DNA of 64,000 nucleotides from assembly GCF_050920415.1 (NCBI RefSeq), contig NZ_CP169309.1, one strand, 5' to 3'. The notes beneath the pieces are model-generated. The model made no database searches. It was not told the origin of the DNA and worked only from the letters and a program-made list of their open reading frames with translations. The DNA comes from Escherichia coli. Lineage in GTDB: Bacteria; Pseudomonadota; Gammaproteobacteria; Enterobacterales; Enterobacteriaceae. Both the position numbers and the translations under genes were made by a program. Numbering within the stretch: the stretch's first letter is position 1; each line of letters begins with the position of its first letter. This document shows, piece after piece, positions 27,970-28,285 of this stretch.

Positions 27970-28285
27970 TTTTTAACCTCAAGGTGAGACGTTTGCCGAC
28001 TATAGTACGTCACAGAGCGGTACGGTGAAATTAGCAAAATGTGCAAAGTCTTTTGCGAATTTAGCAAAAGTCTGATCTTGCTCCGATTCACCGATGCAGG
28101 ATAAATATTTTCTGAAAATGACAATACTGATAGCCATTCCTCATAATTCCTACTCGCACCGGATTAATTTACAGGTTTGGTTCGGTTTTTTGGGGATTAA
28201 AAATATGGCGTTGGATAAGTAAAAATGAAAATATCAACGCGTCACGTTGATAATTATAAATGGATTTTTATGAGCGTGCTAACAT

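Follow-up and report, generated by a model that had tools for sequence, protein, structure and literature searches.

A conserved block upstream of mdaB in Escherichia coli with a marbox and an adjoining predicted site of the LysR-type regulator YafC

The mdaB-ygiZ spacer and its conserved block

The gene mdaB of Escherichia coli encodes an NADPH:quinone oxidoreductase and is in divergent orientation to ygiZ. We analyzed the spacer between the two genes in a 64,000-nucleotide stretch of contig NZ_CP169309.1 (the window), in which the gene order is parE (+), ygiN (-), mdaB (-), ygiZ (+) and qseC (-). The mdaB coding sequence (27388-27969, minus strand) was assigned from its open reading frame (ORF) and the annotation in an identical strain, and is the gene that the motifs discussed here would control. 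The ygiZ gene (28286-28618, plus strand), likewise assigned from ORF and annotation, encodes a DUF2645 inner-membrane protein. The spacer comprises 316 bp (27970-28285), is 100% identical to that of E. coli strain 2013C-4282 and contains all motifs.

A preliminary description of this DNA had noted direct repeats and a near-palindrome upstream of mdaB and a 7-bp inverted repeat upstream of ygiZ. Direct reading and a repeat search found all of them in place: the proximal repeat TTAGCAAAAT at 28031-28040, the near-palindrome GCAAAGTCTTTTGC at 28043-28056, the distal repeat TTAGCAAAAG at 28061-28070 and the ygiZ-side repeat treated below. The direct repeat extends to 13 nt (GAA(A/T)TTAGCAAAA, 28027-39 and 28057-69, spacing 30), and an inverted repeat with 13-nt arms (AGTCTTTTGCGAA / TTAGCAAAAGTCT) spans 28047-59 and 28061-73. 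It had also been stated that coding features do not explain the motifs, and indeed all are intergenic, with no long ORF in the mdaB-ygiZ region that accounts for them. By chance, 2000 dinucleotide shuffles of the region gave an exact direct repeat of at least 9 nt in 21% of cases and a perfect inverted repeat with arms of at least 7 nt in 19% or at least 8 nt in 6%. Since about 20% of the shuffles yield repeats of such size, the bare repeats are not significant by themselves (P ~0.2 each).

Conservation gave a different picture for the mdaB side. We retrieved 80 species-representative mdaB loci and anchored the alignment on GCAAAAG, which resulted in 81 Enterobacteriaceae sequences from more than 20 genera. 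A block with the consensus ATTATTGC-N7-GCAAAAGACTTTGCACATTTTGCT(A/C)ATTT is near-invariant in these sequences over a 40-bp core, whereas the 7-bp spacer and both flanks vary freely. In a 23-bp core, most columns are identical in 78-81 of the 81 sequences, and the flanking columns carry almost no information. Because the block is conserved while spacer and flanks vary, it is non-random. Downstream of it follow, in this order, a semi-conserved TT(C/T)ACC, a variable 16-bp stretch, G.GTAnAAT and, 7-8 nt further on, a conserved CA. Not a single indel was found between the block and the -10 element, so that the spacing is fixed.

The block is also retained at loci where the upstream neighbor is not qseC (L020, L074, L078, Shimwellia L087 and L094). 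The direct repeat, in contrast, is present in the window but is not the conserved unit: its distal TAA falls into the variable spacer and is common to some genera only. In the distal copy, TTGC...GCAAAAGAC alone is conserved. Phylogenetic footprinting, which the preliminary description had suggested as a check, thus singled out the mdaB-side block and gave no such support for the ygiZ palindrome.

The putative mdaB promoter lies directly downstream of the block on the minus strand. Here, we placed the -10 hexamer TACTAT at 28002-28007 (TAnAAT in other genera; conserved columns 49-54), a -35 hexamer TTCACC of our own assignment at 28024-28029 with a 16-bp spacer, and a predicted transcription start at 27994-27995, about 25 nt upstream of the ATG, where the conserved CA lies 7-8 nt past the -10 (columns 61-62: C in 75/81, A in 81/81). 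The promoter stayed below the threshold of a sigma-70 consensus scan, and this weak score fits an activator-dependent promoter. The authors of a Salmonella study could not map the mdaB start.

A marbox is predicted in forward orientation at 28028-28047 (minus strand), at about -53 to -34, and contains the proximal repeat. On the mdaB strand it reads TTTGCACATTTTGCTAATTT, with two mismatches to AYnGCACnnWnnRYYAAAYn; the consensus scan recorded the match as TTTGCACATTTTGCTAATT (28029-28047). With respect to the promoter elements placed above, it shares 2 bp with TTCACC, and 20 bp separate its end from TACTAT. Forward marboxes that overlap the -35 are said to form class II, to which this one would belong. 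The corresponding alignment columns 9-28 show hardly any variation, even in the 7-bp interior, and the assignment rests on the position of the site, the conservation of the whole 20 bp with GCAC and interior, and the literature. The marbox at mdaB as such is textbook material: published work cites mdaB as a mar regulon member, as the preliminary description had it, and as activated by MarA. In a Salmonella ramA mutant, mdaB was 3.2-fold lower, the second strongest gene lost, which places it among the strongest RamA targets. A further match to the marbox consensus, with one mismatch (ATGGCACGTAACGCCAACC, 22469-22487, minus strand), resembles what we take to be the published tolC marbox.

The distal dyad and its relation to CrgA and YafC

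Next to the marbox, the block contains a dyad, AGTCTTTTGC-GAATTTA-GCAAAAGTCT (28047-28073), which holds the distal repeat together with the left half of the near-palindrome. Its core TTTTGC-N7-GCAAAA (28050-28070, center 28060, about 3,172,439 in NC_000913.3) is an interrupted dyad of the T-N11-A type with conserved arms and a free N7. Across the alignment, the conserved form is TTGC-N7-GCAA with extended arms, in Escherichia AGnCTTTTGC / GCAAAAGnCT. Relative to the predicted start, the dyad is centered at about -66; both this location and its form are classical for LysR-type recognition sites. The marbox stretch, 21 bp downstream of the dyad, also reads TTGC-N7-GCTA and may be the activation-binding half of such a site. 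In three lineages the dyad is kept but the GCAC of the marbox has decayed (Entomohabitans L021, GAAC; Shimwellia L087, GTAC; L094, ACCT), which argues that the dyad is an independent element under its own constraint.

A closely related arrangement has been described in Neisseria meningitidis, where the LysR-type regulator CrgA is encoded divergently from mdaB and activates it, and where a 63-bp DNase footprint was published (Ieva 2005; Sainsbury 2009). In mdaB direction, this footprint reads GATTATTTC-ATTTGAC-GCAAAAGTG-TTTTCTTAT-TTTTGCAC-TTTTAAATTATAAAGT, so that the distal site is ATTATTTC-N7-GCAAAAGTG, followed by TTTTGCAC. At 14 of the 17 positions specified in the enterobacterial consensus, the two agree, and they share the 7-bp gap and the orientation; 7 of 20000 shuffles attained such a match. 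The divergent gene pair and the site recur in Haemophilus influenzae (ATTATTCC-GCTTAGC-GCAAAAGAG-...-TTTTGCAC), where the start codon of the regulator adjoins the dyad.

The proteins are conserved as well. MdaB is 59% identical between E. coli and N. meningitidis. A homologue search with the CrgA sequence, taken from a PDB alignment, found a 90%-identical H. influenzae protein that carries the NCBI name YafC. A gapless alignment of 293 residues gave 60% identity and 78% similarity between YafC of K-12 and CrgA, with an almost identical helix-turn-helix region, and the CrgA structure paper names YafC as a close E. coli homologue.

Outside mdaB loci, matches to T[TA]TTGC-N7-GCAAAA are scarce, with 2 sites in 1.1 Mb of unrelated metagenome DNA; in the mdaB loci (500 kb), 74 of the 77 matches sit just upstream of mdaB. 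A looser metagenome scan for ATTATTTC-N7-GCAAAAG, whose 15 specified bases were too permissive, found MdaB encoded at 0 of 120 loci. Among distant mdaB loci (Acinetobacter, a Neisseriaceae bacterium, a betaproteobacterial contig and Shimwellia), none had an adjacent regulator; in this distant group, the dyad was seen in Shimwellia and L094 only. Elsewhere in the window, a perfect TTTTGC-GATTGAG-GCAAAA dyad (54293-54311) lies 35 bp upstream of an ORF resembling a hydrogenase-2 small subunit (start 54346); it is either a further site or a chance occurrence (P ~0.1; background about one site per 500 kb).

In E. coli, regulator and target are unlinked (yafC at ~0.23 Mb, mdaB at ~3.17 Mb), and the dyad recurs beside yafC. 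In K-12, the sequence at the start codon of yafC reads CAT|TTTTGC-TCCTGTT-GCAAAAT, a perfect copy (NC_000913.3, 230,882-230,900), and a start-proximal dyad with free spacer is also present in Citrobacter, Lelliottia (TGTTGC) and Dickeya. Upstream of dkgB, the aldo-keto reductase gene beside yafC, we found ATTATTGC-N7-GCAAAAA(T/A)C-CTCTGC in E. coli (NC_000913.3, 229,057-229,078), Citrobacter and Dickeya, each time 52 bp upstream of the -10. The gene is the second predicted target of YafC. The distance from the dyad center to the best -10 is 52 bp for mdaB of E. coli, Klebsiella and N. meningitidis as well as for the three dkgB promoters, and 51 bp for a seventh promoter, in H. influenzae. The yafC-dkgB pair was found in 5424 of 5426 E. 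coli genomes, and YafC orthologues (84-90% identical) are encoded in carriers of the mdaB dyad that include Citrobacter, Enterobacter, Salmonella, Lelliottia and Trabulsiella. In Salmonella enterica, yafC starts with TTG and ATTTGT-ACCTGTA-GTTTGG stands where the dyad would be (locus L221, ~1975-2003); the mdaB dyad of Salmonella is intact (L019, L028).

The ygiZ side of the spacer

The spacer is a mosaic. Only the 104 bp adjoining mdaB (27970-28073) are universal in E. coli, being present in 5425 of 5426 complete genomes. O157:H7 is without ygiZ, and mdaB there is 109 bp from the qseC stop. In UTI89-type strains, an Hcp (type VI secretion) gene, an ORF of 236 residues without a Pfam match, and ygiZ are present. 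The left end of the ygiZ island (28074-28128) is missing in O157:H7 and common to the window and UTI89-type strains. It is followed by a 155-bp segment specific to K-12-type strains (28129-28283), which has no counterpart in the UTI89-type loci aligned, stands where those strains have 1.3 kb with hcp and the 236-residue gene, and carries the ygiZ promoter region and the palindrome.

Since qseC immediately precedes mdaB in nearly all other Enterobacteriaceae, ygiZ is an Escherichia insertion, and its region is an Escherichia-specific remnant of an Hcp (type VI secretion) island. The insertion point (28073/28074) coincides with the outer edge of the mdaB motif block; the mdaB-side motifs and the ygiZ palindrome therefore stand in DNA of very different age. 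The ygiZ gene, alone kept in K-12-type strains together with the private segment, may be an orphan immunity-like gene.

Further observations concern the surroundings. A second variable spot flanks mdaB-ygiN (26995-27043 of the window, compared with the O157:H7 and UTI89 loci): 3' of ygiN, the window strain and K-12 have parE, and O157:H7 and UTI89 have genes for a MurR/RpiR regulator and an iron-siderophore ABC transporter. Between the convergent ygiZ and qseC lies a hairpin with a 10-bp stem (TCTATGAGAG-N12-CTCTCATAGA, 28624-28655). It is likely a bidirectional terminator and is missing in O157:H7, where qseC abuts the mdaB control region.

The 7-bp inverted repeat upstream of ygiZ, ATCAACG-cgtca-CGTTGAT (28233-28251), is perfect in the window strain, as had been described. 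It extends to a palindrome with the arms TATCAACG/CGTTGATA (28229-28255), found by the repeat search as an inverted repeat with 11-nt arms (AAATATCAACG / CGTTGATAATT, 28229-39 / 28245-55). A comparison was possible within Escherichia only, among five haplotypes of the K-12-type 155-bp segment. The palindrome is perfect in two of them, the window strain and E. whittamii, whereas its arms do not match fully in K-12 and two of the four other lineages that were aligned. K-12-type strains read ATCAACG-tgtca-TGTTGAT, with a G-T (G-U) pair on the plus strand, and SCU-316 has one mismatch and one compensatory change from A-T to G-C.

The palindrome might be functional, as an operator between the -35 (ATGAAA) and -10 (GATAAT) of ygiZ, as a leader hairpin or as a minus-strand terminator, but we consider such a role unlikely. 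In its favor, the promoter scan placed it between these two hexamers on the plus strand with 18-bp spacing, a terminator-like hit was recorded on the minus strand only, and perfect 8-bp arms are among the rarer outcomes of the shuffles described above. The compensatory change in one lineage and the G-T pair kept in K-12-type strains point in the same direction. Yet the palindrome is imperfect in K-12 and SCU-316, the minimum-energy fold of the ygiZ leader does not use the hairpin, and an Rfam search of 27900-28700 gave no match. The terminator reading was rejected, as there is no upstream minus-strand gene and hence nothing to terminate. Restriction of the region to K-12-type Escherichia also means that deep conservation cannot be shown. 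Furthermore, the known regulator of ygiZ acts elsewhere: activation by BglJ-RcsB is the only documented control of ygiZ (Salscheider 2014; PMC3950696), with a mutagenesis-proven box centered 65-68 bp upstream of the mapped start. As far as the published text shows, that control concerns ygiZ and not mdaB, in the same K-12 intergenic region, and does not involve the palindrome.

The word AATTC(C/T)TA of this region fits the published BglJ-RcsB core wwTTCykA, and we place it at 28145-28152 on the plus strand (AATTCCTA). With the box there, ygiZ would start near 28215 and the palindrome would lie in its leader. Exactly at this box (~28144-28153), strain GPEC859 (L090) has a 9-bp tandem duplication, AATTCTTAC. 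Close to ygiZ, an upstream ORF of ten codons (ATGGATTTTTATGAGCGTGCTAACATATGTTAA, 28260-28292, plus strand), for which no ribosome-binding site is obvious, overlaps the start codon of ygiZ with its end (ATATGTTAA). The palindrome itself is marginal against chance and unproven as a site; most likely it is incidental to a ygiZ leader or promoter that is young and derived from the island.

Predicted double control of mdaB

Taken together, the comparative evidence, which is strong, suggests that upstream control of the mdaB-ygiN promoter is probably contained entirely in 28024-28073, composed of the marbox and an adjoining predicted YafC site. The preliminary description had read the repeats as MarA/SoxS/Rob-type or other activator sites. 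The first part of this reading holds for the proximal repeat, which belongs to the marbox together with the near-palindrome's right half. The distal repeat is not a second marbox, and as an "other activator site" it matches the operator dyad of the CrgA/YafC type of LysR regulators, so that YafC is predicted to co-regulate mdaB. A YafC operator at mdaB is apparently new, as it was not described in the literature searched.

In the arrangement we propose, MarA, SoxS or Rob (in other genera RamA) binds the marbox at 28028-28047 as a monomer and recruits RNA polymerase, the part already known from the literature, and YafC would recognize the dyad at 28047-28073, with its oligomer sitting there. 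On an electrophile- or quinone-type signal, YafC would re-contact the proximal TTGC-N7-GCTA and help the polymerase, and the MarA-type activators would use this proximal DNA independently of YafC or in competition with it. The repeated words (TTTTGC three times, GCAAAA once) would then be half-sites of a CrgA/YafC-type regulator. The distal direct repeat would correspond to the left dyad arm plus three spacer bases, the near-palindrome to the right arm together with bases one to five of the proximal site, and the proximal direct repeat to the interior and the second recognition element of the marbox. The analysis shows the sequences, their conservation, the orthology and the return of the dyad at yafC and dkgB; that YafC binds, what it senses and how it interacts with MarA-type proteins is our inference.

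This layout shares features with three known systems. As in Neisseria, the target MdaB is conserved, the regulators are orthologous, and a distal site ATTATT(T/G)C-N7-GCAAAAG is followed by a TTTGCAC word, with 52 bp from the dyad to the -10. In contrast to Neisseria, yafC is unlinked to mdaB in E. coli, each gene has its own copy of the dyad, TTTGCAC stands nearer to the dyad by 10 bp, the proximal site became or coincides with a marbox, and binding in E. coli is a prediction. The class II marbox promoters (such as fumC, micF, nfsA-ybjC and inaA) likewise have a 20-bp asymmetric forward site over a weak -35, but the conservation at mdaB goes far beyond what the degenerate consensus needs, and the mdaB site is abutted by a second, unrelated site. 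Finally, LysR-type promoters as for BenM and CbnR have recognition near -65 and activation near -35 to -45; at mdaB, the T-N11-A dyad is at about -66 and a weaker related dyad 21 bp downstream. Unlike the generic LysR-type tetramer, CrgA is described in the cited work as an octamer with two long sites, so that the "sliding dimer" picture may not apply.

Several points weigh against this double control. The marbox consensus is without discriminating power: a motif scan, as had been suggested, did find the two-mismatch match at 28028-28047, but the window contains 18 matches with 17.8 expected. The -10, -35 and start of mdaB are inferred, and the -10 hexamers behind the 51-52 bp spacing were picked by hand. 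In most genera, the left arm (ATTATTGC) mirrors the right arm worse than in Escherichia. At the one yafC locus of Salmonella that was examined, no start-proximal dyad is present, and the presence of yafC was established for genera other than Klebsiella, which carries the mdaB dyad. Moreover, the YafC site at mdaB is predicted from comparative evidence, and a chromatin immunoprecipitation sequencing (ChIP-seq) compendium of 2024 could not model YafC binding.

If marboxes accounted for everything, the 45-bp block would consist of two tandem marboxes, 21 bp apart, for MarA/SoxS/Rob monomers, and a LysR-type regulator would not be involved. The distal element does have marbox geometry (ATTGC, seven bases, GCAAAAG), agrees with 9 of 13 specified consensus positions by our own count and lies two helical turns upstream of the marbox in the same orientation. 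The marbox of the mar promoter itself presumably contains TTTTGCTAAAT, like the distal repeat of E. coli, which we counted in favor of this explanation. However, positions 6-7 (the AC of GCAC) are free in the distal element, positions 15 and 19 are mismatched, and the likeness to GCTAAAT is confined to some genera. The dyad also stands at yafC and dkgB without any marbox, is retained in the three lineages in which the true marbox decays, and is found in the CrgA footprint of Neisseria, where we know of no MarA/SoxS/Rob system or other MarA-type activator. We therefore regard tandem marboxes as an improbable explanation.

A dimeric regulator other than YafC, possibly QseB/PreA, might bind the dyad, and this is improbable to a similar degree. 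Overexpression of PreA (QseB) lifts Salmonella mdaB 7- to 32-fold, for which the authors of that study proposed direct binding. In addition, qseC is directly before mdaB in most genera. QseB/PmrA-type regulators bind direct repeats of CTTAA-like words; such repeats are not present at the block, and the block is retained where the neighbor is not qseC. Furthermore, the match is to the footprinted CrgA site, and the dyad recurs beside yafC itself.

Other candidates were rejected. YhaJ has a different published motif (TCAAATTTTTTGAAGA), and the literature search found no paper joining YhaJ and mdaB. YcaN, encoded beside the flavodoxin-like reductase gene ycaK, is distant from CrgA (E 3e-29), and the ycaN-ycaK region is without the dyad. 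A PurR/LacI-type reading of GCAAA-AGAC-TTTGC fails on the central spacer, which is 4 and not the 2 of such regulators. For a sigma-54 promoter, the spacing in TTGCAC...TTGC is two bases short as judged by eye; the published sigma-54 site is inside qseC, 964 bp away.

That the repeats are functionless products of chance in an AT-rich intergenic region, for which the frequency of such repeats in the shuffles speaks, is refuted for the mdaB side by a block near-invariant in more than 20 genera though spacer and flanks vary, is possible for the ygiZ palindrome, and is hardly credible for the region as a whole.

Returning to control by YafC together with MarA-type activators, we tentatively suggest a wider role. 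YafC, an orphan regulator of E. coli, may be the sensor so far missing for the induction of mdaB-ygiN and dkgB, and may control its own gene too, in response to electrophiles such as 2-methylene-4-butyrolactone or to quinones. The crgA-mdaB pair of Neisseria and Haemophilus and the enteric layout would be two states of one ancestral unit, and in the enteric state each half would have kept its operator. As TTTGCAC belongs to the proximal CrgA site in Neisseria, it seems that the enteric marbox was built on it, over the activation site, so that one stretch of 20 bp would serve two activator families that are unrelated.

Methylene-butyrolactone reportedly induces MdaB in E. coli, and YafC could explain this induction; the compound is known to induce mdaB of Neisseria via CrgA. 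Papers of 2022 and 2025 still call YafC uncharacterized. The prediction would give it a function, with a regulon of mdaB-ygiN, dkgB and yafC and with NADPH-dependent detoxification as its theme. The region would then be a clean case of one site that serves two activator families, and of an operator that has outlived the separation of regulator and target.

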